Source: Candidatus Doudnabacteria bacterium (GTDB lineage Bacteria; Patescibacteriota; Doudnabacteria; UBA920; O2-02-FULL-48-8). Taken from it: DNA of 64,000 nt. A model generated the notes under the pieces. That model saw nothing but the letters and a program-made list of their open reading frames with translations. It ran no database searches and was not told the DNA's origin. Every line of letters begins with the position of its first letter. The stretch's first letter is position 1. The position numbers and the translations under genes are program-made. This document shows positions 33,629 through 63,244 of the stretch, one piece after another. Where the stretch lies: contig JBDTSL010000001.1 of assembly GCA_039931165.1 (NCBI GenBank), positions 66,214-130,213 of the forward strand, given 5' to 3'.

Positions 33629-34521
33629 CTGCTGACACCTTCCACTTTCACCCAGCCTGGAGGAAGATCGCACGGTGTAGGGAAAGTTTTAACTTCCCCA
33701 GTCGCAGGATTCATTCCCGTCGTGATCACTTGGATGCAAGCAATAGGATTTTTCGGGTCAGAGATTGGGGTGATTTGTTTGGTACAATTTATTCCTGCGT
33801 CAGGGAACGAACCTTCCGAAACGCAGGTGTAGCCGGTCGTCGGGCAAGGCATACCGGCAATTCCTCCGCAAAAAACTGTGTTGGCAACTGTGAACTTGAA
33901 AGTGGAAAGGATTTGTTGAAAAATTTTAATCGCTTCTCCTTGATCCTTTACACTGAATAGCAATTCAATATCTATGCCCTCATTTAAGAGATCAACATTT
34001 TTCAAAAGTGACGCTGGTATTATTAATATGGCTATTCTTGCGGTATTATTTGGATCTATTGCAGTGGCTCCCAAATTCTCCCCATATCCGTACAGTCTAT
34101 ATCCCAAATTTTTGCCGTCTACAAGAACCGGAAATTCTTGATACTTTATAGTACCTTCTCGACAGCAATTGCTCTCGATTTGCAACTTGAATCTATTGGA
34201 AGGATCTTTAAAAGACACTACCGGAATAGAAGAAGTTGGACTGGCTTCAGACGACATAGTACTATCATTTGGATACTTAAAACTAAATCCATACTGATCA
34301 TTCGTATAAGTTTTCCAATTTGCCATTGTGTCAACTTTTTCGTGATGCACGGGAGGAATAATAACAGGCTCTGACTGGGAGACCTGGTAATAGTACGCTC
34401 CGGCAGCGATGGCGCCAAAAAGCAGGATTCCCAAAATCTCGGACATAATATGCCTGGCAAACCAGCTTTTGTGAGGTCCGAGTTCGAGTGGAGGCGGTTG
34501 TGAATTTCCTATTTCGGTCAT
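33625..34521 (-). CDS. Membrane-anchored modular protein, paralog A (TM + WKTYTN-QYGF module ending in ILSTFKFT + Cys-rich tail)
   Basis: Its first 240 nt are identical to paralog B's start. 4-nt overlaps chain A, B and C. Confidence 0.6.
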   Translation of the reverse strand: MTEIGNSQPPPLELGPHKSWFARHIMSEILGILLFGAIAAGAYYYQVSQSEPVIIPPVHHEKVDTMANWKTYTNDQYGFSFKYPNDSTMSSEASPTSSIPVVSFKDPSNRFKLQIESNCCREGTIKYQEFPVLVDGKNLGYRLYGYGENLGATAIDPNNTARIAILIIPASLLKNVDLLNEGIDIELLFSVKDQGEAIKIFQQILSTFKFTVANTVFCGGIAGMPCPTTGYTCVSEGSFPDAGINCTKQITPISDPKNPIACIQVITTGMNPATGEVKTFPTPCDLPPGWVKVEGVSR

Positions 34522-35558
34522 GGGGTGAATTTAAAGGTGGAAAGGATTTGATCCAAAACCTTTTCATCAAAATATTCTTTATCCAGAATTTTACTATTTA
34601 AAATATAAAATTCATTACTTCCAGTTTTAAAATGGTAAACAATGAGACCGCAATAATCTGACCTTGACATCATTATTCCGTTGACTAGTTTTGAGCTAGT
34701 CTTTATATCAAGACATCCCTCACCGAATCCAAATCCAGGATTATTTATCTTGATATTAAATCCATTGCTGCTTTTATTTGCATCCTCAAAGCTTATGTCC
34801 CCCCATCCGCTAGAAGAGGATTTATCTTGATAGGTTATTGACGGAGGATATTGAAACTCAAACCCGTACTGGCTGTTTGTGTAAGTTTTCCAAGTCGAGG
34901 TATCCAGAACTGAACTTGGCGTTGTGAACTTGAAGGTGGAAAGGATTTGGTTAATATAAGCAACGCTTGGCATTGTTTTCGGGTCTCCGGGGCAGTGTTC
35001 TTCATCCATAAAACTAACATCAATCAAATCTAGTCCGTCTTTAGTAATTGTCTGGAACGAGGCCTGGTCACAACCAGGAGCCCCTCCGGCAGGATTATAA
35101 AAAATATGCCAGGTCACGCCATTGATAACTTTTGAAGCAATAGAGGAAGGTGGATTTCCATAAGGATCAGTCGCAACGTCCGTGTAGCCTTTAATAATTT
35201 TTATGTCTGGTACAATATTATTTATCAATTGAATTGTCTGGTAAGTTTTTCCTGCAGTTGTCACGCTTCCAGTACCTGTAGTAGCGTCAAGAGGCATTAA
35301 TTCCACTGGAGTTTTTAACTCAAACCCATACTGATCATTCGTATAAGTTTTCCAATTTGCCATTGTGTCAACTTTTTCGTGATGCACGGGAGGAATAATA
35401 ACAGGCTCTGACTGGGAGACCTGGTAATAGTACGCTCCGGCAGCGATGGCGCCAAAAAGCAGGATTCCCAAAATCTCGGACATAATATGCCTGGCAAACC
35501 AGCTTTTGTGAGGTCCGAGTTCGAGTGGAGGCGGTTGTGAATTTCCTATTTCGGTCAT
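34518..35558 (-). CDS. Membrane-anchored modular protein, paralog B (two modules, each ending in ILSTFKFT)
   Basis: N-terminal 80 aa identical to paralog A. The second module opens with TPSS..DTSTWKTYTNSQYGFEFQYP, as in paralog C. Confidence 0.6.
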   Translation of the reverse strand: MTEIGNSQPPPLELGPHKSWFARHIMSEILGILLFGAIAAGAYYYQVSQSEPVIIPPVHHEKVDTMANWKTYTNDQYGFELKTPVELMPLDATTGTGSVTTAGKTYQTIQLINNIVPDIKIIKGYTDVATDPYGNPPSSIASKVINGVTWHIFYNPAGGAPGCDQASFQTITKDGLDLIDVSFMDEEHCPGDPKTMPSVAYINQILSTFKFTTPSSVLDTSTWKTYTNSQYGFEFQYPPSITYQDKSSSSGWGDISFEDANKSSNGFNIKINNPGFGFGEGCLDIKTSSKLVNGIMMSRSDYCGLIVYHFKTGSNEFYILNSKILDKEYFDEKVLDQILSTFKFTP

Positions 35559-36724
35559 GAGGTGAATTTAAAGGTGGAAAGGATTTGATTAGTTATTTCT
35601 TCGGTGCCCGACACTTCATAAACTTTGCCGTTTTTCTCGACATAGTAATCCGATCCGTTTGGAGTACTAAAATGCTGCCAGGATATACCCGCGACTGTCG
35701 CATTCCCTAGCTTCTTTTCATTTTTTAGAAAAGGATCATCTTTCAAAACAGTGGCCAATGTAACACTGTATATATCCACACGCCCGCTAAAATCTTGCGC
35801 GGGGTAACTAGTACGATAGATGGCTGCGAACATCCGGGAAACCGGCAAATAATCAGTTGAGCTGGCTTGTGAATCAACTACCTTTACCCATGTTTGAGGA
35901 TATTGAAACTCAAACCCATACTGGCTGTTTGTGTAAGTTTTCCAAGTCGAAGTGTCGGCAGTGGAACTTGGCGTGGTAAACTTGAAAGTAGAAAGGATCA
36001 ACTCGGCTGTTTTTTGATTGGAATCAAAATTCGGATCGGACGTAGGTGTAGCGAAATAATCACGAGATCCAAAATAAACATATGTATCGTATAAATCTGG
36101 AATAACGCCTGAATCTGGACTCTCGAAATAATCCACACCAGCTTTATTAAAACTGTATCTGATGTAATGAAAAGTTTTCCCATCCCCTCGATATACCGGG
36201 TGTTTGTAAATCTTAATTCCGCTGGAATTCGGGATAATTGACCTGGTTTTCAAAACATCAGCTTGAACACTGGCAACAGAAGTGGAATCTTGCTTCAAAA
36301 GCGCGGAGCCAGGCTCATTTATTCCCAATATTATTTGTTGTGCGCCGTCGCGGCTCAGATATACTTCATCTCCGTGACATGCAACGGCTGCCAGTGGGTC
36401 TGTTGTGGCGCAATTGTCATCAGCTGTTGTCAAAGCCAAGGCCGGGGGATATTTAAACTCCAATCCGTACTTTGTGTTGGAATACGCCTTCCAGTCAGCC
36501 ATAAAATCTTTATGCGCCGGTACTTGTAAAAATGCAGGAATCTGGCGCACGGTTTGCCAATAGTAAATTCCCGACACGATCGCGCCGACCGCGGCCAGCA
36601 AAAAAACAACGCCAAGAATCATATGCCGTGAAAACCAATTTTTATGCAGAGTATCTGTCATCGGAGTCGGGGGAACTTTGTAGGTTGGATCTGTTGGATT
36701 TTGATTTGGTTGTGGTGTATCCAT
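35555..36724 (-). CDS. Membrane-anchored modular protein, paralog C (two modules; divergent N-terminus)
   Basis: Shares module boundary motifs with A and B. Its TM anchor is homologous but diverged. Confidence 0.6.
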   Translation of the reverse strand: MDTPQPNQNPTDPTYKVPPTPMTDTLHKNWFSRHMILGVVFLLAAVGAIVSGIYYWQTVRQIPAFLQVPAHKDFMADWKAYSNTKYGLEFKYPPALALTTADDNCATTDPLAAVACHGDEVYLSRDGAQQIILGINEPGSALLKQDSTSVASVQADVLKTRSIIPNSSGIKIYKHPVYRGDGKTFHYIRYSFNKAGVDYFESPDSGVIPDLYDTYVYFGSRDYFATPTSDPNFDSNQKTAELILSTFKFTTPSSTADTSTWKTYTNSQYGFEFQYPQTWVKVVDSQASSTDYLPVSRMFAAIYRTSYPAQDFSGRVDIYSVTLATVLKDDPFLKNEKKLGNATVAGISWQHFSTPNGSDYYVEKNGKVYEVSGTEEITNQILSTFKFTS

Positions 36725-41194: not shown

Positions 41195-41815
41195 TTATGT
41201 CTTGGGAAGTTTTATGGCATAATCATAAACTTTTAAATAAACTTTGTGGATGTCGGGCTTGTCAGTTGCGGCCAGGCTAGTTTTGGCGTAGTCAAATACT
41301 TTTTTTGCCGCATCCGGTGTTTGGCCAATTATAAAGCTCTTGGAGTTAATAGACGCATCCTCTGCTGCTTTTCCAAAAGGTATAATTTGCGGAAATAAAA
41401 TTTTGTATTCCCCAAGTTCTTCATCCCATCTGACGCTGAAAATACTTTCTCCATTCTCTGTAAACTCTTCATGATATGACTTATCTGGACCCAGTTCCTT
41501 TTTTTCCTCCTCCGGTTGTTCTTTTTTCCGCGCTCCTAACAACTCTAGTTTTAGCTCTACTTTCAGTTCTGCCATTAATTCAGCTTTCAACTCTGTTTTC
41601 AGCTCATATTTTAGTTCTTTTTTTAATTCAGCTCTCAACTCTGCTTTCATCTGTTCTTTTACCCCTTGGCCCGATTCCTTTACTTCCTGAATCCTTAATT
41701 CGTATCCTTCTTTTTGTCCTGTCCTTCTAGCCTGGGCTATGCTTTCTTCAACCCCATCCTCCGGAACCTCAGCAATATTCATTTCTTCCGGCGACGGTTC
41801 ATTTTTTTCTGCCAT
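41195..41815 (-). CDS. Acidic protein with ~10 tandem tetrapeptide repeats (ELKx)n, then a globular C-terminal domain
   Basis: ELRAELKKELKYELKTELKAELMAELKVELKLEL repeat block seen directly. Confidence 0.5.
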   Translation of the reverse strand: MAEKNEPSPEEMNIAEVPEDGVEESIAQARRTGQKEGYELRIQEVKESGQGVKEQMKAELRAELKKELKYELKTELKAELMAELKVELKLELLGARKKEQPEEEKKELGPDKSYHEEFTENGESIFSVRWDEELGEYKILFPQIIPFGKAAEDASINSKSFIIGQTPDAAKKVFDYAKTSLAATDKPDIHKVYLKVYDYAIKLPKT

Positions 41816-48075: not shown

Positions 48076-48495
48076 TTATTCTGCCGTTCTTGCTTTTTTT
48101 GTATCGAGGTATTGCTGGAGCATGATCTGGGCTGCAATGTTATCTTTAACCCCCCTCTGCTCTTTTTCTTTGATTCCGAGCTCTCTCAGTCTGTTCGTTG
48201 CTTCCACTGAAGTAAACCGTTCGTCTATCAGGGTTATCGGGACTTTCACAGCCTTGGAAAGATTATCTACAAAAACCTTAAGTTTCACGGCGGATTTTTC
48301 TTCTTTGCCGGCCAAATTCTTAGGCAGTCCAACCAATACCAAGCTGATTCCGAGTTCATTAATTATTTTTATTATTTCAGCTATTGCATTTTGTGTTTCG
48401 AAGAACTGTTCCAGGGGAAAAGCGATTTTTCCTTCTTCATCCGAAACCGCCGCCCCGACCCGGGCTTCTCCCCAATCAATCGCCAAAACCCTCAT
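48076..48495 (-). CDS. ruvX: Holliday-junction resolvase-like RNase RuvX/YqgF
   Basis: VLAIDWGEARVGAAVSD N-terminus (RNase H fold). Confidence 0.85.
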   Translation of the reverse strand: MRVLAIDWGEARVGAAVSDEEGKIAFPLEQFFETQNAIAEIIKIINELGISLVLVGLPKNLAGKEEKSAVKLKVFVDNLSKAVKVPITLIDERFTSVEATNRLRELGIKEKEQRGVKDNIAAQIMLQQYLDTKKARTAE

Positions 48496-48630
48496 TTACC
48501 CCCACACCAAAAGAGCTTTTGTTTCGGCAAAGCCGAAACAGTTGGCTCTTGAATTATCGCTGTTGGACTATATTCAATCATTTTATATTCATAATTATTT
48601 TACTAAATAAGCTCGTTATGGTGTGGGGGT
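48496..48630. repeat. MITE/Correia-like element, copy 1 (TIRs ACCCCCACACCAAA.GAGCTT / AAGCTCGTTATGGTGTGGGGGT; internal TTTCGGCAAAGCCGAAA hairpin)
   Basis: Fills exactly the spacer from htrA's stop (TTA at 48631-48633) to ruvX's start codon (CAT at 48493-48495). About 90% identical to copies 2 and 3. Confidence 0.8.
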
Positions 48631-49887
48631 TTATTTGCTCTCCCCTAAGGTCACCGTCAGATCTTTGGTTTTGCCGCCGCTGAAAACGGTCATTTTCACA
48701 ACATCTCCCGGATTAAAATCTTTCAGGTAGGAAGCCAAGCTATGGTCTTGATTTAAATCCTTCCCATTGATCTGCTGGATTATGTCATGTTCCTTAAGCC
48801 CGGCTTTATCCGCGGCCGAACCCGGTAAAACTGCCGGCGAGCTGATCAAGTCTCCCGAAACGATCAGCGCGCCATGGTCGACGCTTAAATTATTTTGCTG
48901 CTGGATGCTTTGGTTGATCATGACATACCTCACTCCAAGGAACGGCTTGACGATCCTGCCGACTTTTTGGAAGCTGCTGATATCTTTTTTGATGTCATTT
49001 ACCGGAATGGCAAATCCGATCAATTGTCCCTGGGAATCCATGGCGGTGTTAATGCCTATCACCGAACCGCCTATATCCAGAAGCGGACCGCCTGAATTGC
49101 CCGGATTGATCGCCGCGTCGGTCTGGATCACGCCTTCCAGTTGTTCGGAATCCGAACCGGTCTCACCGCCGGCCGTTATCGTCCGGCCGATGCCGGAAAC
49201 AATGCCTTTGGTGACAGTATTGCTATATTGGCCCAAGGAATTCCCGATCGCTATGACAGTCTGGCCGATCCGGAGACCGGAGGAATCACCCAAAGGTAAA
49301 GTTGGCAATTGACTGGCGCTTATTTTCACCAAAGCCAGATCATTGACCGGGTCGCGCGACAATACTGTCGCGTCATATTTCTTGCCGTCATTGGTCAGTA
49401 CTGTATAAGTGGCGGTTGTGTCTGCAACCACATGCTTGTTGGTCATGATCAGCCCATCGGAAGATACGATAAATCCGGAACCGCCTCCTATCTGCTGGAT
49501 ATTCGGCGTATTGTTTTTTTGGTTCTGCTGATTGCGGTTCTGAAAAAACGGGTCAAACGAAAAGGGGCCAAAGTCAAAAGGCGAGGTAGAATATCCGGGA
49601 ATTTTATTAAGATCTTTGGAAATTATGATCGAAACAACCGCCGGACTGGCATTCTTGACCACGTCAACAATCCCCGACTGTTCGTTCACGGAAACGGTTT
49701 TTATATCGCTGCCGATGCCGGAGCCAAATGAAACGCCATTATGCAATAAAAACGTTGAACCAAAAACAGCTCCTCCGATGCCAAAAAGAAAACTGAGCAA
49801 AACCACCAAAGTAATCAGCTTAATACTGGATTCCCCTGCTTCGGGCAAATCCGAAGTCAGAGCTTTTTCATTATTTAACTTTGTCAT
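48631..49887 (-). CDS. htrA: HtrA/DegP-family serine protease with a PDZ domain
   Basis: Catalytic triad context (TNKHV, GNSGGPL) and a C-terminal PDZ domain. Confidence 0.85.
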   Translation of the reverse strand: MTKLNNEKALTSDLPEAGESSIKLITLVVLLSFLFGIGGAVFGSTFLLHNGVSFGSGIGSDIKTVSVNEQSGIVDVVKNASPAVVSIIISKDLNKIPGYSTSPFDFGPFSFDPFFQNRNQQNQKNNTPNIQQIGGGSGFIVSSDGLIMTNKHVVADTTATYTVLTNDGKKYDATVLSRDPVNDLALVKISASQLPTLPLGDSSGLRIGQTVIAIGNSLGQYSNTVTKGIVSGIGRTITAGGETGSDSEQLEGVIQTDAAINPGNSGGPLLDIGGSVIGINTAMDSQGQLIGFAIPVNDIKKDISSFQKVGRIVKPFLGVRYVMINQSIQQQNNLSVDHGALIVSGDLISSPAVLPGSAADKAGLKEHDIIQQINGKDLNQDHSLASYLKDFNPGDVVKMTVFSGGKTKDLTVTLGESK

Positions 49888-53239: not shown

Positions 53240-53304
53240 AAATTAGGTTATAGGTTATAGGTTATAGGTTGTAGCCGGTTGAGCTATAACCTATCACCTA
53301 AAAC

Positions 53305-53748
53305 CTAGTTACTGATCTTTCCTCCGGCTTTCTGCACTTTCTCCAGCGCCGAAGCTGAAAACTTGATCTTTTCAAAATTCAAGGCTTTTTTAATTTCACC
53401 TGAAGCCAGAATTTTCACTTCAAGGCTTGCGGATTTGATAAGTCCTAAATTATATAAAACTTTCGGATTGACCTTATCGCCTGCCTTAAATTTATTGTTC
53501 AGATCATCAAGGCCCAAAACTGTAAGTTTGGTATTTCTGGAAGTAAAACCCCGGCGCTTCGGCAATTGGCGCTGCAACGGCATACGGCCGCCTTCGAACC
53601 CGACCGGGATCGAAGAGCCTGAACGGGCTTTTTGGCCTTTGGCGCCGCGGCCCGAATACGTTCCGTGGCCCGAACCAACACCGCGCCCGACAACTTTGCG
53701 GCGTTTGGTGGCTCCTCTATATGGTTTAAGCTCCGATAACTTCAACAT
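53305..53748 (-). CDS. rplO: 50S ribosomal protein L15
   Basis: Gly/Arg-rich N-terminus (RGVGSGHGTYSGRG). Confidence 0.9.
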   Translation of the reverse strand: MLKLSELKPYRGATKRRKVVGRGVGSGHGTYSGRGAKGQKARSGSSIPVGFEGGRMPLQRQLPKRRGFTSRNTKLTVLGLDDLNNKFKAGDKVNPKVLYNLGLIKSASLEVKILASGEIKKALNFEKIKFSASALEKVQKAGGKISN

Positions 53749-53751
53749 ATA

Positions 53752-54273
53752 TTACTCCGTTACTTTCTGGACAGCCTTACGGCTGGCAATTTCTTCTTTT
53801 GACCGCAGTTTAGACAAAGCCAAATATGTGGCCATGACATTATTCACTTTATTCGAAGAACCGAGCATTTTTGACAGGACGTTTCTGACACCGACCAAGT
53901 CCAGCACTTGCCTGATCGCCCCGCCGGCAATCACTCCGGTGCCGGGCTGGGCGGGCTTAAGGAATACCACCGAGGATTTATATTTGAACTTGATTTCGTG
54001 AGGGATCGTGTCATTCACTATTTTGATCGGGATCATTGTTTTCTTGGCAGCAGTCACGGCCTTATTCACGGCTTCCGAAACATCCGCCCCTTTCTTGAGT
54101 CCGATGCCGACCCGGCCTTTCTTGTCGCCGATCACGACCAGAGCTCGAAAACGCATGCGCTTGCCGCCGGCAACCACGCGAGTGACGCGCTTGATCTCTA
54201 CGATCTTCTGTTCAAAATCTTTCTTTCCGCCGTCGCCCTGTCCCCGGCCGCGGCCTTGTCTTTTAAATGCCAT
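53752..54273 (-). CDS. rpsE: 30S ribosomal protein S5 (no L30 gene between S5 and L15)
   Basis: S5 dsRBD and C-terminal domain similarity. Confidence 0.9.
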   Translation of the reverse strand: MAFKRQGRGRGQGDGGKKDFEQKIVEIKRVTRVVAGGKRMRFRALVVIGDKKGRVGIGLKKGADVSEAVNKAVTAAKKTMIPIKIVNDTIPHEIKFKYKSSVVFLKPAQPGTGVIAGGAIRQVLDLVGVRNVLSKMLGSSNKVNNVMATYLALSKLRSKEEIASRKAVQKVTE

Positions 54274-54277
54274 AGGT

Positions 54278-54622
54278 TTAAAACTCCAATCCAGCGGCTC
54301 TCGCCGCTTCCGCTAATTCTTTCACACGGCCATGGTATTGATAGCCGCCTCGGTCAAATACGATTTTTTTGATGCCTAGGGCCTTAGCTTTTTCCGCGGC
54401 CAATTTACCCACAGCGGCGGCGATTTCCGATTTCTTGCCCTTGCTTTTAACTTCAGAGCTTGAAGCAGCAGCCAGGGTTTTACCGGTTTCGTCGTCGATC
54501 AGCTGGATATAAATGTGCGAAAGTGAGCGAAAAACATTCAGCCTTGGCTTGGATGAACTGCCGATGACTTTAGCGCGAACCCTTCTCTGGCGCATTTTTC
54601 GTTGTGCTTGTCTGGTATTCAT
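54278..54622 (-). CDS. rplR: 50S ribosomal protein L18
   Basis: Start chosen at [14 protein letters not shown]. Confidence 0.9.
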
Positions 54623-54761
54623 ATTTACCCCCACACCAAACGAGCTTTTCTTCCGGCAAAGCCGAAACAATTTTCCCGTGATGTGTTAATTTCTTCGTAA
54701 TCTACTAATATTCTTATAATCATAATTATTTTACTAAATAAGCTCGTTATGGTGTGGGGGT
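54623..54761. repeat. MITE/Correia-like element, copy 2
   Basis: Exactly fills the rplF stop (TTA at 54762) to the rplR start (CAT at 54620-54622). TIRs and internal hairpin as in copy 1. Confidence 0.8.
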
Positions 54762-55343
54762 TTATTTCGCTCCCACGGCCTTCACGACTTTGCCGGCTTT
54801 GCGTCTGATGACCTCATCCGAATATTTAATACCTTTGCCTTTATAAGGCTCCGGTTGCCGGTGAGAACGCACAACCGCGGCAAATTGCCCGACCGCCTGG
54901 CGGTCAGAGCCCGTGATGGTAATCGTGTTTTTCTCGACTTTCGCTTCCAGCCCCTGCGGCACTTCCATTTCGATCGGGTGAGAATAACCCAGATTTAAAA
55001 CCAATTTTTTTCCGGAAATCGCCGCCTTATACCCCACACCGTTGATCTCCAAAATTTTTGTAAACCCGGTGGTGACCCCGACGATCATATTGTTGATCAG
55101 TGCCCGGAACAGTCCCCACAAGGCACGCTGCTGTTTATTCTCACTATCGCCTACGCTAACCAGCACTTCCGAGTCTTTTTGTTCGACTTTAACTTTCGGA
55201 TGCAACGCCAAACTCAGCTCTCCTTTAGGTCCTTTGACTTGCAGGATTGAGTCCTTTCCGCCGGAGGCGGATCCGCCTTCGGCGGAGATGTCAACTGTGA
55301 CACCCGCGGGCACTGGAATTGGTTTTTTTCCTATTCTGGACAT
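54762..55343 (-). CDS. rplF: 50S ribosomal protein L6
   Basis: Family similarity. Confidence 0.9.
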   Translation of the reverse strand: MSRIGKKPIPVPAGVTVDISAEGGSASGGKDSILQVKGPKGELSLALHPKVKVEQKDSEVLVSVGDSENKQQRALWGLFRALINNMIVGVTTGFTKILEINGVGYKAAISGKKLVLNLGYSHPIEMEVPQGLEAKVEKNTITITGSDRQAVGQFAAVVRSHRQPEPYKGKGIKYSDEVIRRKAGKVVKAVGAK

Positions 55344-55378
55344 AGTTTTTTAATCTTTAATCTAAAATCTTTAATCCT

Positions 55379-55777
55379 CTACCACACCTGGCAGACAACC
55401 TCGCCGCCAATCTTGTTTTGGCGCGCTTCCTTATCCGTCATTAATCCTTTCGAGGTTGAAATGATCGTGGTGCCGATGCCTCCCATGACTTTCGGGATCT
55501 CGGTTCTGGCGGAGTAAATCCTCTGTCCGGGTTTGCTGACACGCTTGATCCCTGAAATCACAGGCAGTCCGGTCTCGTCATATTTGAGTTCCAACAACAA
55601 GCTTTTGAAACCATCGGTCTCCTTGACTTCCACTTTCTTGATATAACCTTCAGAATGCAAAACCTTGGCCAAATTATGCTTAAAATTCGAATAGGGCAAA
55701 ACCACGTCCGGTTTGCGTGCCATCAGGCCGTTGCGGATGCGGGTCAACATATCGGAAATTGTATCGGTCATGGTCAT
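55379..55777 (-). CDS. rpsH: 30S ribosomal protein S8
   Basis: Start chosen at MTMTDTISDMLTRIRN; the ORF-track GTG start at 55789 lies inside the repeat element. Confidence 0.9.
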   Translation of the reverse strand: MTMTDTISDMLTRIRNGLMARKPDVVLPYSNFKHNLAKVLHSEGYIKKVEVKETDGFKSLLLELKYDETGLPVISGIKRVSKPGQRIYSARTEIPKVMGGIGTTIISTSKGLMTDKEARQNKIGGEVVCQVW

Positions 55778-55917
55778 ATTTACCCCCACACCAAACGAGC
55801 TTCTGTTTCGGCAAAGCCGAAACAGTTTGCTCTTGAATTATTTTCTTCTCTGTTATATTCGATCATTCTTGTAGTCATAAATATTATTACTAAATAAGCT
55901 CGTTATGGTGTGGGGAT
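55778..55917. repeat. MITE/Correia-like element, copy 3
   Basis: Exactly fills the rpsN stop (TTA at 55918) to the rpsH ATG (CAT at 55775-55777). Confidence 0.8.
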
Positions 55918-56112
55918 TTACCAAGAAGCCTTAAATACGCCGGGGATCTCGCCGTTGGATGCTAGTTCCCGAAAACAAATGCGGCAAATATCAAAATCAC
56001 GCATATAGCCGCGCTTGCGGCCGCAGCGCCAACAGCGTCTGACCACGCGCGTCGAATACTTCGGGTTGGTGCGCGAACGGAATGATTTAATTGTCTGTGC
56101 TTTGGTTGCCAT
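55918..56112 (-). CDS. rpsN: 30S ribosomal protein S14, type Z (zinc-binding)
   Basis: [20 protein letters not shown] zinc ribbon; 64 aa. Confidence 0.9.
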
Positions 56113-56124
56113 ATCTTTGTAATT

Positions 56125-56664
56125 CTATTCTTTTTGAAACGGGAACCCCAGAGACTTTAATAATGCCAGCGCTTTCTTGTCGTCGTTGGTCGAGGTCTGG
56201 ATATTGACTTCAAGACCAAATACATATTCCAAATGTTCGCGGGTAGTTTCCGGAAAAACAATCTGCTCCCGAATACCGACATTATAATTGCCGTGGCCGT
56301 CAAATTTTTTCGGGGCAAGGCCCCGGAAGTCCCTCACGCGGGGCAATGAGACATTCACGAACTTATCCAAAAAATCATACATCCGGCGGCCCCTAAGTGT
56401 GACCATCAGCCCCACGACCTGGTTTTCGCGGATCTTGAATCCGGCAATTGATTTTTTCGCCATGGTCTTCACAGGTGCCTGTCCGGCGATATTTTTTACA
56501 TCTTCGATGATCGCCTCAAGCATTTTCGGATCTTTCAGCGTTTTGCCGACACCGACATTGATCACCACTTTCTTCACCATTGGCACAGCCATGGGATTGG
56601 TCAATCCGAAAGCTTTTTTCAGATCCGGCACCGATTTTTCTTTATAAATAGTCTTTAAATTCAT
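56125..56664 (-). CDS. rplE: 50S ribosomal protein L5
   Basis: Start chosen at MNLKTIYKEK. Confidence 0.9.
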   Translation of the reverse strand: MNLKTIYKEKSVPDLKKAFGLTNPMAVPMVKKVVINVGVGKTLKDPKMLEAIIEDVKNIAGQAPVKTMAKKSIAGFKIRENQVVGLMVTLRGRRMYDFLDKFVNVSLPRVRDFRGLAPKKFDGHGNYNVGIREQIVFPETTREHLEYVFGLEVNIQTSTNDDKKALALLKSLGFPFQKE

Positions 56665-57363: not shown

Positions 57364-57431
57364 AAGGGTGGAATATAGAATATGGAATGTGGATTATGGA
57401 TTTTTAAATCCTATATTCCAAATTCTAAATT

Positions 57432-57668
57432 CTACATTCTATTAATTACTTTCCAGCTAACTGTCTTACTATAGGGCTTTGATTCTTCGATTACAACTTT
57501 GTCGCCAACGGAGAATTCCGTATCAGCGTGAGCCGGAAATTTTTTGAAAACCTTATAGCGCTTGTGATATTTCGGGTGGACTTTTACAATTTCAACCTTA
57601 ACTACCACAGTCTTGTTCATCTTGTTGGAGGTTACGGTGCCGGTTAATTTTCTCTTGATAGTTTCCAT
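57432..57668 (-). CDS. rpsQ: 30S ribosomal protein S17
   Basis: Family similarity. Confidence 0.9.
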   Translation of the reverse strand: METIKRKLTGTVTSNKMNKTVVVKVEIVKVHPKYHKRYKVFKKFPAHADTEFSVGDKVVIEESKPYSKTVSWKVINRM

Positions 57669-60771: not shown

Positions 60772-61224
60772 TTAGACTCCTTCGCTCAATCCTGCGATCC
60801 GCTCGCCTGACTTTAATGTTACGATCGCTTTCTTCCAATCCTGGGTCCGGCCTACTGATTTTCCTTGTCGACGGTTTTTACCTGAGACATTAATCATATT
60901 GACCGCCATAACGTGCACATCATATACTGCCTCGATCGCTTTTTTTACTTCGATCTTATTAGTAGATTTGGCGACTTTGAATACATAGCGGCCTATGGCT
61001 GAAAGCTGGTTGGTTTTTTCCGACAAATGATGGCGAAGCAGGATATGGTGGGCCCGGCCGGTGTTTTCCTTAAGAATTGCTTTTTGTTCAGCAGTTTTTT
61101 CCTCAGCCGGTTCTTTGACCATATCTAAAACATTCTCTTCCTTAGGAGCTTTTTTTCCGGCGGAGCCGGATCCGGCTTTGCCGGACTTTTCATCTTTCTG
61201 TTTAAATCTGTCTAGGATTCCCAT
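60772..61224 (-). CDS. rplW: 50S ribosomal protein L23, possibly with an N-terminal ~50-aa extension
   Basis: The L23 core begins near HHILLRHHLSEKTN. The true start is uncertain; an internal Met is possible. Confidence 0.8.
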   Translation of the reverse strand: MGILDRFKQKDEKSGKAGSGSAGKKAPKEENVLDMVKEPAEEKTAEQKAILKENTGRAHHILLRHHLSEKTNQLSAIGRYVFKVAKSTNKIEVKKAIEAVYDVHVMAVNMINVSGKNRRQGKSVGRTQDWKKAIVTLKSGERIAGLSEGV

Positions 61225-61248
61225 ATTCTATATTCCAAATTCTATATT

Positions 61249-61887
61249 CTACTTTAAATATGTCTTCTCGATCACCGGCAGGGCGTCTTTCAAAATCATT
61301 GTATCGTGATTCAATAAATCCAGAACATTCAGCTGGTTGGCCGGCAAAATCTTGACATGCTTTAGGTTTCTGGCGGCGCGAACCAAATCTTGATTGTGAG
61401 TCGATAAAACCAATATATATTTCTCACCCAAACCGGCCTTGGTGGCAAGTATTGCCAGTTTGACGGCCAAATCTTTGGTTTTGGCCGTCGTATCAAAACT
61501 TTCAACGATAACCAATTTATGATTATTGACCTTGTCGGTTAAAATGCTGAATAACGCTTTTCTTACTGCCGACTTATTCATTTTAAGCGACCAATTACGG
61601 GCAGAAGTCGGACCAAATGTAATTCCTCCATGCCGCCAAAGCGGCGAGCGGACCGATCCCGCGCGGGCGCGTCCGGTGCCTTTTTGCTTCCAGGGTTTTT
61701 TGCCCGAGCCGGCAACTTCCCCTCGATTTTTCGTATGGGCGATCGAAGGACGGGCGTTGTTTCTCTGCGTCCTGACCGCGGCGTGGACGAGGCTGGCGTC
61801 GATTCTATCAATGCCAAAAATCTTCGGGTTCAGGTCAAGTTCCGTGACTATTTCGCCTGTTTGATTGTAGACTGCTGTCTTGGTCAT
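61249..61887 (-). CDS. rplD: 50S ribosomal protein L4
   Basis: Family similarity. Confidence 0.9.
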   Translation of the reverse strand: MTKTAVYNQTGEIVTELDLNPKIFGIDRIDASLVHAAVRTQRNNARPSIAHTKNRGEVAGSGKKPWKQKGTGRARAGSVRSPLWRHGGITFGPTSARNWSLKMNKSAVRKALFSILTDKVNNHKLVIVESFDTTAKTKDLAVKLAILATKAGLGEKYILVLSTHNQDLVRAARNLKHVKILPANQLNVLDLLNHDTMILKDALPVIEKTYLK

Positions 61888-61888
61888 G

Positions 61889-62491
61889 TTAGTTTAATTT
61901 GGAAACAATATCTGGGTAATCCGTAAAGATTCCATCAACACCATAATTTTTTAACCGATAGAATTCTTCAGGAGTATTAATTGTGTATACATATACTCTC
62001 CAGCCCAATTCCCTAAATTTGGACATCCGATTTTCATTGACCAATTCCGGCGTGACCGAGATGGAAAAAATATTTACCTTTTTTAAAAAACTTATTACCA
62101 ATGGAAGGAGAATTCCGTATCGGGTGGCAATCACCAGACCTAGTTGGATATTTCCGTCCAAAGCCCTGATCTTCTTTAATACTAGTGGGTTCCAAGAAGT
62201 GATCAAAACCTTGTGCGCAAATCCTTTTATTGACTCTAAAACCTCGTTTTCAAACCCGCTTTCCTTGATCTCCAAATCCAGGGGCAAGGTTGCCATATGC
62301 AGTAGTTCGTCCAAACCCGTTGAATCGGAATAATCGTTTTTGCGATCATGCGATAAAACTATTTTACCGTCGGAGGTGCGTCGCAAATCGCATTCAAGCA
62401 TTTGCGCGCCGCTATCCTGAGCTTTTTTAAAAGAACGAATCGTATTCTCCGGCTCCAACCCCGCTGCTCCCCGATGCCCGATGATCAGCAT
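61889..62491 (-). CDS. Glycerophosphodiester phosphodiesterase-family protein (GDPD) embedded in the S10 operon
   Basis: IIGHRGAAGLEPENT (HR(G) GDPD motif) and the E..D metal ligands; 200 aa. Confidence 0.7.
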   Translation of the reverse strand: MLIIGHRGAAGLEPENTIRSFKKAQDSGAQMLECDLRRTSDGKIVLSHDRKNDYSDSTGLDELLHMATLPLDLEIKESGFENEVLESIKGFAHKVLITSWNPLVLKKIRALDGNIQLGLVIATRYGILLPLVISFLKKVNIFSISVTPELVNENRMSKFRELGWRVYVYTINTPEEFYRLKNYGVDGIFTDYPDIVSKLN

Positions 62492-62641
62492 ATACCCTCA
62501 CACCAAACGAGTTTAATTGCCCTGTTTGATAACATATTCGAGATTATTTAGTTTATTAAGTTAACTGCTTTTAAATAACCAATCCCGAATCGTATTTTTT
62601 ATCTAAAAAATACAATTCGAAACTCGTTCTGGTGTAGGGGT
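62492..62641. repeat. MITE/Correia-like element, copy 4 (diverged interior; TIRs kept with compensatory changes)
   Basis: Exactly fills the rplC stop (TTA at 62642) to the GDPD start (CAT at 62489-62491). TIRs are ACCCTCACACCAAACGAGTTT / AAACTCGTTCTGGTGTAGGGGT. Confidence 0.65.
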
Positions 62642-63244
62642 TTAGACAGCCTGAATCTTTACGATCCCGCCATTGGCCCCGGGTACTGCTCCCTTCACAG
62701 CGATAAGATTGCGCTTTACATCCACATCAACAACTTCCAAATTGGTAACTGTCCGCACTCCGCCCATTCTTCCGGCCATACGCAAGCCTTTTCTGACATG
62801 CTGTGGAAATCGTCCGCCGATGGCCCCTACCGCTCTTGGATGATCATGGCCGTGGGATGCCGGAGCTCCTTTAAATCCGTAACGCTTGATCGGGCCTGCG
62901 AATCCCCGCCCTTTCATTTCCGCAGTAACTTTAACCTTGTCGCCGACCATAAAAGCATCGACTTTGATCTCCTGGCCGGGCATAAACACGTCTTTGGCGT
63001 CAGTCCGGAATTCCGTCAGATTCATAAGCGCACCTGCAATTTTCCCATGGCCGAGTTCAGCCTGATTTGGTTTTGTTTTCTTGCCGAATCCGACCTGTAC
63101 CGCTGAGTACTTGTCTTTTGCCATGGTCTTGACCTGGACAACTTTTATCGGGCCTGCCTTAAGGATGGTCACAGGCACGACTTTGCCGTCTTTGGCGAAC
63201 ATTTGCGACATATTCAGTTTTTCGGCAAGGATAAACTTGGTCAT
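62642..63244 (-). CDS. rplC: 50S ribosomal protein L3
   Basis: Family similarity. Confidence 0.95.
   Translation of the reverse strand: MTKFILAEKLNMSQMFAKDGKVVPVTILKAGPIKVVQVKTMAKDKYSAVQVGFGKKTKPNQAELGHGKIAGALMNLTEFRTDAKDVFMPGQEIKVDAFMVGDKVKVTAEMKGRGFAGPIKRYGFKGAPASHGHDHPRAVGAIGGRFPQHVRKGLRMAGRMGGVRTVTNLEVVDVDVKRNLIAVKGAVPGANGGIVKIQAV

Follow-up and report, generated by a model that had tools for sequence, protein, structure and literature searches.

Short inverted-repeat elements at gene boundaries of a Doudnabacteria genome as probable miniatures of a GIY-YIG-encoding, transposon-like family of CPR bacteria

The Correia elements (CREE/NEMIS) are MITEs of 100-155 bp with terminal inverted repeats, adjacent to genes and co-transcribed with them; their arms form long RNA stems that are cleaved by RNase III, and they can change gene expression. 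We know of no cognate enzyme for these elements, nor, to our knowledge, have IS200/IS605 elements or REPINs been reported to lie in start or stop codons. Among nucleases, Slx1 cleaves branched or stem-containing DNA. A further precedent is Ssn, a ~90-aa GIY-YIG protein with a single domain. Its gene has its own repeat on either side, and hundreds of ORF-less NTS/SRM hairpin repeats are found between genes (Chenal et al. 2025, PMC11893778). The authors remark that the system is built like an IS and draw a parallel with REP/IS200-IS605, and describe Ssn as a transformation modulator, not a transposase (PMC11893778).

Here we analysed a 64-kb stretch of Doudnabacteria DNA (hereafter the window), in which an earlier note had placed four copies of one element at gene junctions on the minus strand. 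This placement holds, with four facing arm pairs, that is eight matches to the arm core ACCCCCACACC (at most one mismatch, whole 64-kb window), where shuffling leads us to expect 0.69 and none of 100 shuffles reaches eight; a chance repeat is thus ruled out. All four elements are inverted repeats of 131-146 nt on the minus (coding) strand, each with a TAA stop before it and the ATG of the following gene after it. Pfam identifies the flanking genes as HtrA-like protease/RuvX, L6/L18, S14/S8 and L3/GDPD and confirms their starts: the profiles of L18, S8 and RuvX align from residues 1-5 of the ORFs onward. We consider it probable that the four loci are MITEs of a CPR-specific, transposon-like family, the complete form of which is a 303-nt unit with a GIY-YIG gene, inserted with 4-bp duplications at gene boundaries; mobilisation and a translational relay are the parts of this proposal that we infer. 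The features of the four elements are the following.

54628..54760, minus strand: MITE-like copy 1, L6/L18 junction, 133 nt, CCCCC...GGGGG
54740-54760, minus strand: copy 1, 5' arm, CCCCCACACCATAACGAGCTT
54628-54647, minus strand: copy 1, 3' arm, AAGCTCGTTTGGTGTGGGGG
54649-54669, minus strand: copy 1, inner hairpin
54761..54764, minus strand: copy 1, left TAAA duplicate; TAA 54762-54764 is the L6 stop
54624..54627, minus strand: copy 1, right TAAA duplicate, then T, then L18 ATG 54620-54622
54625..54723, minus strand: copy 1, mini-ORF (putative 'relay ORF'), 32 codons
55783..55916, minus strand: MITE-like copy 2, S14/S8 junction, 134 nt
55896-55916, minus strand: copy 2, 5' arm, begins TCCCC
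55783-55802, minus strand: copy 2, 3' arm
55804-55824, minus strand: copy 2, inner hairpin
55917..55920, minus strand: copy 2, left TAAA duplicate; TAA 55918-55920 is the S14 stop
55779..55782, minus strand: copy 2, right TAAA duplicate, then T, then S8 ATG 55775-55777
55780..55878, minus strand: copy 2, mini-ORF, 32 codons, MTTRMIEYNREENNSRANCFGFAETEARLVWG*; duplicated TAA 2 nt upstream of S8 ATG
48499..48629, minus strand: MITE-like copy 3, htrA-like/ruvX junction, 131 nt
48609-48629, minus strand: copy 3, 5' arm
48499-48518, minus strand: copy 3, 3' arm (one mismatch)
48520-48540, minus strand: copy 3, inner hairpin
48630..48633, minus strand: copy 3, left TAAA duplicate; TAA 48631-48633 is the protease stop
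48495..48498, minus strand: copy 3, right TAAA duplicate; final A is the A of ruvX ATG 48493-48495
48492..48581, minus strand: copy 3, alternative-frame mini-ORF, 29 codons; TGA overlaps the ruvX ATG (ATGA)
62495..62640, minus strand: MITE-like copy 4, L3/GDPD junction, 146 nt, second subfamily
62620-62640, minus strand: copy 4, arm, CCCCTACACCAGAACGAGTTT
62495-62514, minus strand: copy 4, arm, AAACTCGTTTGGTGTGAGGG
62641..62644, minus strand: copy 4, left flank TAAA; TAA 62642-62644 is the L3 stop
62491..62494, minus strand: copy 4, right flank TATA (TAAA with one substitution); final A is the A of GDPD ATG 62489-62491

The copies are less uniform than the earlier note had described. An AAAT spacer is found before L18 and S8, but ruvX has AA and GDPD has AT, and the five Gs reported 5-6 nt before all four ATGs end at 5 nt (a borderline spacing) in L18 and S8 but at 3 nt (too short for the ~5-9 nt usual for an SD) in ruvX and GDPD. 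The GDPD arm reads GAGGGT in place of the supposedly general GGGGGT, and the 5' arm is not constant either, the S14/S8 copy beginning ATCCCC. Copy 4, described as like the rest, has an interior unlike the other three and decayed arms, and represents a separate subfamily, while copy 3 differs from its sibling copies by two 1-nt deletions. No nuclease ORF, GIY-YIG or other, is present within the window copies, in which the mini-ORF of 29-32 codons is the sole ORF.

Three of the four window copies are framed by a 4-bp target duplication, TAAA/TAAA, and the fourth by TAAA/TATA. The orthologous junctions are empty in the Doudnabacteria relatives L148, L149, L150 and a P0011 contig, with 81-83% L6 identity and unchanged gene order (metagenome assemblies, as are all sequences compared here). 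In L149 the empty L6/L18 site reads AAATAATATG and the empty S14/S8 site TGGTAAATCTATG, and the L3 stop and GDPD start overlap as TAATG with the element absent; a relative without the element has a 4-nt overlap of htrA and ruvX. The Doudnabacteria MAG L023 carries copies at L24/L5, S8/L6 and L18/S5 instead, and the L18/S5 junction is empty in the window though occupied in L023. TAA and (A)AAT thus each come from one copy of the native junction TAAAT(AT)G, duplicated over 4 bp, and this duplicated junction together with the element ends ACCCCC/GGGGGT accounts for every feature noted earlier. Read from the sequence in this way, GGGGG marks the end of the transposon and AAAT belongs to the native spacer. 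The window copies combine terminal inverted repeats, fixed-length target duplication, small size, multiple copies and presence/absence polymorphism, the defining traits of MITEs; on these sequence traits, the four elements are MITE-like copies of non-autonomous mobile DNA. A group I or II intron is ruled out by the lack of a ribozyme match together with the duplication at the DNA level.

The same insertion pattern is found family-wide. A perfect 4-bp duplication flanks 45 of the 89 non-redundant copies and involves eight different tetramers, the typical form being T-N-N-A (TAAA in Doudnabacteria, TGAA elsewhere). Nine perfect-duplication copies have other tetramers (two each of TGTA, TTCA and TTTA, and one each of TATA, TGCG and TTGA), and about five copies have no duplication and read stop, element, TGAA.... 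The left duplicate retains the upstream stop (TAA/TGA), and the right duplicate retains the host start or, with the terminal G/A of the element, rebuilds it. Of the 89 copies, 45 share their 3' end with the start of a long host ORF (codon GTG, or ATG in the T...A-ended subfamily), the terminal G/A and the duplicated TG forming the regenerated codon; the L24 N-terminus lines up with the ATG of a relative. Copies lie sense to their host genes in 63 cases and antisense in seven. Within the window, all four insertions fall in the eight tight stop-start TAAA sites, among 192 TAAA/TTTA sites outside ORF interiors. The copies span CPR classes in hundreds of unrelated gene contexts, and with 0 matches of the arm pattern in viral contigs, phage carriage is without any sign.

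The complete form of the family is a 303-nt unit in which ~21-nt repeats tightly enclose the gene of an 85-aa single-domain GIY-YIG nuclease. Its terminal inverted repeats, CCCCCACACCA[T]AACGAGCTT ... AAGCTCGTTTGGTGTGGGGG, are common to the miniatures (repeats of the CCCCCACACC... type), and the stop codon of the gene sits inside the 3' repeat. Units with the miniatures' arms were found in many CPR MAGs; 37 of the 89 copies measure at least 200 nt, mostly ~303 nt with the 85-aa ORF, and ORF-less MITEs are the more numerous form. By Pfam the ORF is a GIY-YIG protein (E about 1e-15 to 1e-17): PF01541 spans residues 1-71, and a second domain is absent. An AF2 model predicts one compact domain (pLDDT 94), nearest in fold to UPF0213 BH0048 and then to Slx1; 1zg2, which precedes Slx1 by fold, is also matched by sequence (E 8e-7). 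The ORF is under purifying selection (median dN/dS = 0.16), and identity is 96.8% in the arms versus 73.5% in the ORF. Two units, L002 and L026, are 100% identical and occupy two different start codons within one MAG. Clustering of the GIY-YIG family at 90% identity gives at least 320 clusters; at 50% identity (E<=1e-10) there are 2,991. In the distant members L151 and L152 the design is unchanged with different repeats. No arm pairs 0.5-5 kb apart occur among 147 loci, and therefore there is no larger parent element; an ORF other than GIY-YIG was never found between the repeats of these loci. As tblastn with three GIY-YIG proteins detects no GIY-YIG gene in the 64-kb window, mobilisation of its miniatures in trans by a nuclease encoded elsewhere is assumed.

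How does this family relate to the systems outlined above? The CPR protein is, like Ssn, a small single-domain GIY-YIG protein, and in both cases ORF-less copies lie between genes. However, the CPR gene lies within one long inverted repeat, whose two arms make up a single stem, whereas the hairpins flanking the Ssn gene are short and separate; the repeat sequences are unrelated, the CPR unit having no separate ATTCCC-N8-GGGAAT-type flanks. The CPR family also has the 4-bp duplication and exact start/stop placement, neither of which is reported for Ssn (PMC11893778). A gonococcal 94-aa GIY-YIG ORF from the plasmid collection, flanked by seven ATTCCC-N8-GGGAAT (dRS3/NTS core) repeats and presumably the SsnA orthologue, is matched by the CPR profile with an hhalign probability of 97%, E 2e-11 and 34% identity; UPF0213 YazA (42% identity, E 3e-13) is slightly closer. 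UPF0213 (YhbQ/YazA/BH0048) and Slx1 are the closest relatives of the 85-aa protein in sequence and fold, but these are stable single-copy cellular genes, without terminal repeats, duplications or miniatures (yazA, for example, overlaps trmNF and rsmI). With REPIN-RAYT and IS200/IS605 the family shares dispersed non-autonomous hairpin doublets, one small flanked enzyme gene, a strong orientation bias and a likely ssDNA hairpin substrate; the enzyme there, however, is an HUH/Y1 transposase, and IS200/IS605 and REPINs have neither target duplication nor strict terminal inverted repeats. Free-standing GIY-YIG homing genes (I-TevI, Seg proteins) are likewise selfish and rely on a GIY-YIG nuclease to spread, but their enzymes carry a separate DNA-binding domain, absent here, and recombination takes them to one cognate allele, with no terminal repeats, target duplication or multi-site dispersal. 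As for the Correia elements, the earlier comparison is right about the kind of element, the window copies being small MITEs with terminal inverted repeats beside genes and a long predicted RNA stem. The 26-bp Correia repeats are unrelated, duplicate TA, occur only in Neisseria and are not stop/start-targeted; membership is ruled out by arm sequence, 4-bp duplication and the Doudnabacteria host. An incomplete search of the literature turned up neither a CPR GIY-YIG inverted-repeat element nor CPR MITEs, so that an earlier description is possible.

A mini-ORF of 28-32 codons is open and in frame in six of the seven copies of the window's subfamily, reading across the 3' arm as far as the duplicated TAA, and its stop usually lies 2 nt before the host ATG. 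In copy 1 it spans the inner hairpin and the entire 3' arm and ends at the right-duplicate TAA, 2 nt upstream of the L18 ATG. The frame is kept open despite an interior identity of 49% (3' arm 97%, inner hairpin 76%), the lone indel inside it measures 3 nt, and its conservation has a shuffle P = 6.6e-4 with related copies counted as independent. Three of ten pairs of the inner hairpin are compensatory. Mini-ORFs are absent from Saccharibacteria-type MITEs and confined to the Doudnabacteria TAAA subfamily. A conserved mini-ORF ending at the duplicated TAA, beside the host ATG, suggests a translational relay, an unexpected support for the translational coupling raised in the earlier note. Conservation of the arm could alternatively reflect lineage sorting of transposition-competent copies.

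In the mechanism that we propose, the GIY-YIG nuclease would mobilise the elements, its probable substrate being the stem produced when the two repeats pair in single-stranded DNA. In the mRNA, a bulged stem of 20-21 bp would loop the element out and occlude positions -15..-4 ahead of the following gene; in the window's subfamily, translation of the mini-ORF through the 3' arm would open the stem, and termination at the duplicated TAA could then lead to reinitiation at the adjoining host ATG. Taken to its fullest extent, the 303-nt unit might be an autonomous transposon with the 85-aa GIY-YIG protein as its sole enzyme, aimed at stop/start codons, and the window miniatures might be shaped for translation relay. 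An enzyme acting on the ssDNA stem would thus explain the 63:7 strand bias, and aim at stop/start codons would explain why the 4-bp duplication (TAA-A or TGA-A) re-creates both gene ends. We advance this fuller version tentatively and with some doubt. Against the proposed mobilisation in general, we know of no GIY-YIG enzyme that catalyses transposition with target duplication, and the protein here is just 85 aa long.

The earlier note had instead suggested host riboregulators, in which the 3' arm donates an SD that the stem sequesters, with attenuation, or RNase III processing as for Correia elements. The folding that it called for gives -40 to -53 kcal/mol for the element RNA (z-scores -5.5 to -9.5), with about equal stability for the opposite strand and for ssDNA. 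The stem is not the perfect ~21 bp first envisaged: arms of 20-21 nt (95% Watson-Crick over 89 copies) form 11 bp, one bulged U and a further 9-10 bp, with one G-U in S14/S8, one mismatch in ruvX, and a mismatch and a wobble in GDPD. Pairing of the arms in the mRNA, as predicted, would bury -15..-4, the modelled cost of opening -15..+10 being 19.5-24.3 kcal/mol with the element versus 3.6-12.1 kcal/mol in the reconstructed empty junction. GGGGGU is indeed SD-like, forming a -9.8 kcal/mol duplex with a canonical anti-SD (an assumed tail that may not be the host's), compared with -10.9 kcal/mol on the same tail for the native GGAGGU of L18 in a relative, and at L6/L18 the insertion has left a native-type SD (GGGAG, in the 3' end of L6) ~140 nt away. 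An SD 4-mer within -18..-5 precedes 18% of 73 crudely called window genes, versus 9% of control positions, so the remark that most genes lack an SD roughly holds. The higher conservation of the 3' arm and the covarying inner hairpin over the interior, the strong sense bias, and the fact that a ~20-bp stem suffices for RNase III (general knowledge) also fit regulation. However, terminal CCCCC is conserved as strictly as GGGGG across the family, even in the start-fused copies, half of the family, where the G-run ends 0 nt from the start and its last G is base 1 of the codon; GGGGG therefore has no SD role there. The 3-nt spacing in two of the four window copies, the predicted unpaired AUG (P = 0.56-0.90), and the unchanged operon of close relatives with empty junctions also tell against regulation, and RNA-level selection on the arms, as a sense-strand G-U excess, is absent (27 arm-mismatch G-U pairs in sense versus 38 in antisense RNA). 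An RNase III signature motif is absent from the six-frame translation of the 64-kb window, which says nothing on the rest of the genome. Of the earlier interpretation, the predicted stem pairing, occlusion and SD-like pairing hold up, but in place of a device acquired by four genes we see a family-wide invariant terminus plus target duplication. We regard the elements as unlikely to be riboregulators, though GGGGGU may, from its modelled duplex, make some contribution as an incidental SD. A native, vertically inherited structured RNA of the ribosomal-protein operon (leader, terminator or attenuator) would suit the strong predicted structure and conserved operon location, but has next to no probability in our view. 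Rfam covariance models give 0 matches at gathering score over the whole window, the htrA/ruvX copy is outside the operon, as are the hundreds of contexts across CPR classes, and the pattern of presence and absence, with relatives empty and L023 occupied elsewhere, refutes a native operon leader RNA. The tRNA/tmRNA scan found none, and the sigma-70 promoter scan of 54200-56200 gave 0 matches; the sole terminator-like match in an element, within the same interval, is the hairpin of the S14/S8 copy on the antisense strand. The inner hairpin is terminator-like on that strand, and the sense bias of the family could reflect selection, not mechanism.

Mobility itself leaves room for another agent, and the elements might be common MITEs that an unrelated transposase (e.g., DDE) encoded elsewhere moves in trans, with GIY-YIG as a passenger or selfish homing-type colonist. 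Terminal inverted repeats with a fixed 4-bp duplication are a DDE hallmark, as in IS5, IS701 and IS1380 (general knowledge), a GIY-YIG transposase is without precedent, and the excess of ORF-less MITEs over complete units is also as expected. Yet the 147 loci contain neither distant arm pairs nor any other ORF between the repeats, and the GIY-YIG ORF exactly fills the inter-repeat space, its stop within the 3' repeat, even in distant relatives with different repeats; the purifying selection on this ORF and the identical units at two sites of one MAG point the same way, and we find an outside transposase rather improbable. We give similarly little credence to inert relics, tolerated as the duplication kept stop and start, in which the mRNA stem would be irrelevant or opened by passing ribosomes, and mini-ORF and inner hairpin would have no present role. 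Interiors diverged to 49% identity, the decayed arms of the fourth copy, start codons accessible in the predicted folds and the lack of a nuclease gene within the window would all agree with decay, but the 97% identical 3' arm, the frame open in six of seven copies and the compensatory changes of the inner hairpin are unexpected for unselected relics of such age.

CPR/Patescibacteria genomes are tiny and tightly packed, and this element family inhabits the most conserved operon of these compact genomes. In the data used here, gene callers turn the element into products of 92-93 aa or fused products and move host starts to GTG, and they should recognise it; GGGGG and the abutting TAA/ATG are read here as footprints of transposition, not as an evolved ribosome-binding device. 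The stem and mini-ORF offer testable predictions on how translation may be coupled where SDs are scarce. Should the GIY-YIG protein prove to be the mobility enzyme, another nuclease superfamily would join the short list of transposase chemistries, in a 303-bp one-gene system directly testable in vitro, and the Ssn finding would be widened from "repeat-associated nuclease" to "mobile element". Were the autonomous-transposon reading true, the unit would represent a new mechanistic class and the smallest autonomous prokaryotic transposon known. Insertion between stop and start with regeneration of both codons would be a very economical life for selfish DNA in genomes with almost no intergenic space.

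The repeats occupy four gene junctions of the window, all on the minus strand, with flanking genes assigned by Pfam:

48499-48629, minus strand: between a trypsin/PDZ protease (htrA-like) and RuvX; spacer to the ATG, AA
54628-54760, minus strand: between L6 and L18; spacer AAAT
55783-55916, minus strand: between S14 and S8; spacer AAAT; arm begins ATCCCC
62495-62640, minus strand: between L3 and a GDPD-family protein; spacer AT; interior unlike that of the other three

In all four, the upstream gene ends in TAA, next come ACCCCCACACC... and ...GGTGTGGGGGT, and a few A/T residues lead to the next ATG, confirming the stop-element-start abutment claimed in the earlier note. The arm core (at most one mismatch) occurs eight times in the window, as four facing pairs, where dinucleotide shuffles expect 0.69. 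Since the Pfam profiles of L18, S8 and RuvX begin at ORF residues 1-5, these start codons are considered sound. Four details of the earlier description require correction, two of them (the ATCCCC of the S14/S8 arm and the deviating L3/GDPD interior) being given above. The AAAT spacer, attributed to every copy, is present at L18 and S8 but not at ruvX or GDPD, and the arms do pair in the predicted fold, yet the supposedly perfect stem of about 21 bp is split by one bulged U into 11 bp and 9-10 bp. Folding of the spacers, a check which that note had proposed, predicts strong structures in the sense RNA (-40 to -53 kcal/mol, z -5.5 to -9.5), with the opposite strand and ssDNA folding nearly as strongly as the transcribed strand.

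The flanks provide clues on the origin of these repeats. With the element limits taken as CCCCC...GGGGG, TAAA is found on both sides in three of the four copies, and TAAA plus TATA in the fourth; such a 4-bp direct repeat beside terminal inverted repeats is a signature of transposition. The window L6 matches a Candidatus Doudnabacteria MAG at 100%. In the nearest relatives compared (L6 identity 81-83%, the genes in the same order, with GDPD likewise between L3 and L4), the four orthologous junctions are all tight and devoid of the element.

Orthologous empty junctions in the nearest relatives
L3/GDPD: overlap TAATG
S14/S8: TGGTAAATCTATG
L6/L18: AAATAATATG
htrA/ruvX: 4-nt overlap

Together with the unoccupied L22 junction of the window (TAAATATG), these empty sites indicate that the flanking TAA and (A)AAT represent a duplicated native stop-start junction, external to the element. 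In a further Doudnabacteria MAG (L023), sibling copies occupy L24/L5, S8/L6 and L18/S5, the last being empty in the window; the elements have thus inserted independently in separate lineages. When the window was rebuilt without the elements, using crude gene calls, 192 TAAA/TTTA sites fell outside ORF interiors, eight of which are a stop-codon TAA(A) with a start at most 8 nt on. All four insertions belong to this eight-site class under those crude calls, and so the avoidance of ORF interiors alone is insufficient to account for the abutment. Two readings are left: recognition of the target in the stop-start context, or tolerance of insertions there alone.

A scan of genome and metagenome collections with the arm pattern returned 147 loci. 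The genuine matches all come from CPR/Patescibacteria (Saccharibacteria, Doudna-, Nealson-, Wildermuth- and Staskawiczbacteria, Minisyncoccia); a few in high-GC genomes were dismissed as chance. The non-redundant set comprises 89 copies of 59-74, 119-160, 212, about 303 and about 410 nt. In the 303-nt class the same two arms enclose an 85-aa ORF, whose start codon lies 6 nt past the 5' arm and whose TAA stop is at the inner edge of the 3' arm. It encodes a single-domain GIY-YIG nuclease (Pfam E 1e-15 to 1e-17), closest among solved proteins to UPF0213 BH0048 by sequence, and by fold to UPF0213 and then Slx1 (AF2 model, pLDDT 94). The ORF is under purifying selection (median dN/dS 0.16), and the arms are 96.8% identical versus 73.5% for the ORF. 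Units of 100% identity were found on two contigs of one MAG, at different host start codons. Clustering of the protein family at 90% identity gives 320 clusters or more, almost all of them of exactly 85 aa; at 50% identity there are 2,991 with E<=1e-10. Some database calls of the ORF have 92-93 aa or 200-300 aa (P0152, P0159, P0175, P0278 and P0301, among others), which suggests that callers take the former host ATG as the start or continue into the host gene. Among the 147 loci, these arms bounded no other ORF and no larger element. A GIY-YIG gene was not found in the 64-kb window, and its four copies are therefore non-autonomous.

The design of a gene within repeats recurs, with different repeat sequences, in the two distant members inspected. 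In L151 (540-899) an 89-aa GIY-YIG gene lies within the inverted repeats CCCTCACTCAGAAATTCCT / AGGAATTTCCTGAGTGAGGG, inserted where a tRNA gene begins; a 9-12-bp duplication, GGGGCGGTTAGC, restores the tRNA 5' end. In L152 (1-340) an 88-aa gene lies within CCCCTCACATGGAAT.../...ATTCCATGTGAGGGG and is flanked by a TTGA duplication; thus, the combination of a gene inside a hairpin and a 4-bp duplication reaches beyond the 303-nt family.

Across the family, 45 of the 89 copies have a perfect 4-bp duplication (TGAA in 31; TAAA in 5; TGTA, TTCA and TTTA in 2 each; TATA, TGCG and TTGA in 1 each), and the target logo reads A-T-G-A-A. In 45 of the 89, a long host ORF begins with a codon made up of the element's final base (G, or A in the subfamily whose ends are compensated to T...A) and the duplicated TG; neither of the remaining frames is open. 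The element thus interrupts the host start codon, which is rebuilt as GTG or ATG; what the left duplicate preserves is the original ATG or, where an upstream gene once overlapped it as ATGA, the TGA of that gene. The rebuilt GTG of L24 in locus L002 lines up with the ATG of a relative's L24; the database call of this gene is 2 codons too long. Relative to flanking ORFs, 63 copies are sense and 7 antisense, and the ORF-less miniatures behave likewise. About five copies (L043, L110, L142, L140, L094) have no duplication: a host stop (TAA/TGA) abuts the element on the left and a TGAA... start follows on the right, which would fit insertion between the A and the TG where stop and start overlap as TRATG, or recombination of one copy with another. 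Tandem double insertions with one shared duplication, ATGAA[69 nt]TGAA[145 nt]TGAA (L045 420-637, L067 2888-3107, L109 2203-2426), suggest that the regenerated site was targeted again. Arm-only hairpins of about 32 nt with the duplication TTCA also occur (L013; L015 84-113).

Junctions of the same operon also carry other sequences. In place of the inverted-repeat element, AT-rich short tandem motifs, (AACCTAT)n, TAGAAT/ATTCTA-type or GATTAAAGATT, are found at 53241-53310 (L15/SecY), 55344-55378 (S8/L6), 57364-57438 (S17/L14) and 61215-61255 (L4/L23). Those at 57.4 and 61.2 kb are mutually related, and a comparable run of GTAGAAT is present in the L6/L18 spacer of the relative L148; such motifs may be a second junction filler or a promoter-like array. 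Palindromic units of the AATTCGTAATTCG type fill the L14/L24 spacer of a Patescibacteria MAG (L153 405-500) and the S14/S8 spacer of Doudnabacteria L023 (2100-2190). The GDPD gene (61889-62491) resides between L3 and L4 in the S10 operon, a position conserved in relatives, two of which (L149, L150) have an extra PsbP_2-like gene between L2 and S19 that is absent from the window. A 283-nt direct repeat of 97% identity (34270-34552 and 35307-35589), with related shorter repeats nearby, and a run of 12-nt-periodic repeats (41540-41647) probably represent repeated protein domains.

The earlier note had proposed that GGGGG is an acquired Shine-Dalgarno (SD) motif, 5-6 nt ahead of each ATG and hidden by the stem. 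SD cores are indeed rare in the window (18% of genes vs 9% at control positions), and the predicted duplex of GGGGGU with the anti-SD reaches -9.8 kcal/mol, the anti-SD being taken as canonical; with it, the GGAGGU ahead of L18 in the relative L149 gives -10.9 kcal/mol. The computed cost of opening positions -15 to +10 is also higher with the element (19.5-24.3 kcal/mol) than at an empty junction (3.6-12.1), and the predicted fold sequesters -15 to -4, although the AUG is mostly unpaired. However, GGGGG is the invariant end of the element, CCCCC at the opposite end being equally invariant. Counted to the ATG, the spacing is too short for ruvX and GDPD (3 nt) and borderline for L18 and S8 (5 nt); in half of the family no gap separates the Gs from the start codon, which precludes an SD role in those copies. 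The window's own GGGAG at the end of L6 was moved away from L18 by the insertion. Arm mismatches (27 sense-compatible, 38 antisense-compatible, 28 other) show no G-U excess in sense RNA, arguing for conservation of sequence and pairing generally and not of the mRNA specifically. An SD role is possible as an incidental effect in two copies, and is not the reason for the motif being there. That interpretation captured the stem, a possible coupling and possible SD pairing, but missed that these are GIY-YIG-associated transposition footprints.

Its analogy with Correia elements stands in kind, both being MITEs (non-autonomous miniature inverted-repeat elements), whereas sequence, duplication and host all differ, and membership of that family fails. 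There is also a resemblance to Ssn/NTS and REPIN/RAYT, in which a small nuclease gene is likewise paired with dispersed hairpin repeats. In contrast to these, the CPR unit places the gene inside one long inverted repeat, duplicates a 4-bp target and lands exactly in stop and start codons. Homology links the CPR protein to an SsnA-like protein of the gonococcus, flanked by NTS (34% identity, E 2e-11); UPF0213 YazA is slightly closer (42%, E 3e-13). In Neisseria gonorrhoeae, L154 (NZ_CP119140.1 1881887-1882866, on a 2.17-Mb record catalogued as 'plasmid') contains an unannotated 94-aa GIY-YIG ORF with seven flanking ATTCCC-N8-GGGAAT repeats, and is presumably the SsnA locus. No prior account of the element was found in the literature, our coverage of which was incomplete. 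We consider it quite probable that the repeats are a GIY-YIG-associated miniature element, in both identity and insertion logic.

A conserved mini-ORF might link the element to host translation. The Doudnabacteria TAAA subfamily comprises seven copies (three from the window, L005 and three from L023), six of which have an open frame of 28-32 codons. Five start at a conserved ATG at about element position 38, the N-terminus being MIIRI... or a close variant in four and MTTRM... in the S14/S8 copy; in L023_S8_L6 this ATG is lost and an in-frame ATG further downstream serves as the start. The frame runs on through the variable interior and the inner hairpin, then through the whole 3' arm (...EARLVWG), and ends at the TAA of the right duplication. 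In four of the six, both window copies among them, this TAA lies 2 nt ahead of the host ATG; it abuts an ATG in L023_S8_L6 and is 5 nt upstream in L005. The ruvX copy has two 1-nt deletions and instead a 29-codon ORF whose TGA overlaps the ruvX ATG. Interior identity averages 49%, the sole indel within the mini-ORF is 3 nt, and at least six open frames in seven have P = 6.6e-4 under a composition-preserving shuffle, a significance overstated by taking the copies as independent. Compensatory pairs number 3 of 10 in the inner hairpin. Mini-ORF and GIY-YIG ORF share the same frame relative to the 3' arm, and in complete units the in-frame stop after the TAA is the TGA of the duplication, overlapping the rebuilt GTG. 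Saccharibacteria-type miniatures have no mini-ORF. The stem would set the upstream stop and downstream start at the two feet of one helix; translation of the mini-ORF would open the stem and terminate beside the host start, and the downstream cistron would then be served by termination-reinitiation. We offer this relay as a hypothesis, and hold it to be somewhat less likely than not that it works as proposed.

As for mobility, the closest characterised proteins to the 85-aa protein are probably the Ssn nucleases, 94-aa GIY-YIG enzymes that are strictly ssDNA- and strand-specific and whose cut site adjoins a hairpin repeat that also brackets the ssn gene (PMC11893778); Slx1, a structure-selective nuclease, is also near by fold. 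The enzyme may recognise the arm-arm stem in single-stranded DNA. This would fit the strand bias, the compensated terminal pair and the bulged T, which is conserved in 78 of 89 copies. Across the window the plus strand has a negative GC skew throughout, so that genes are co-oriented with replication, and replication- and transcription-linked causes of the bias are inseparable here. We tentatively put forward that the GIY-YIG protein of these CPR elements could be a new kind of transposase.
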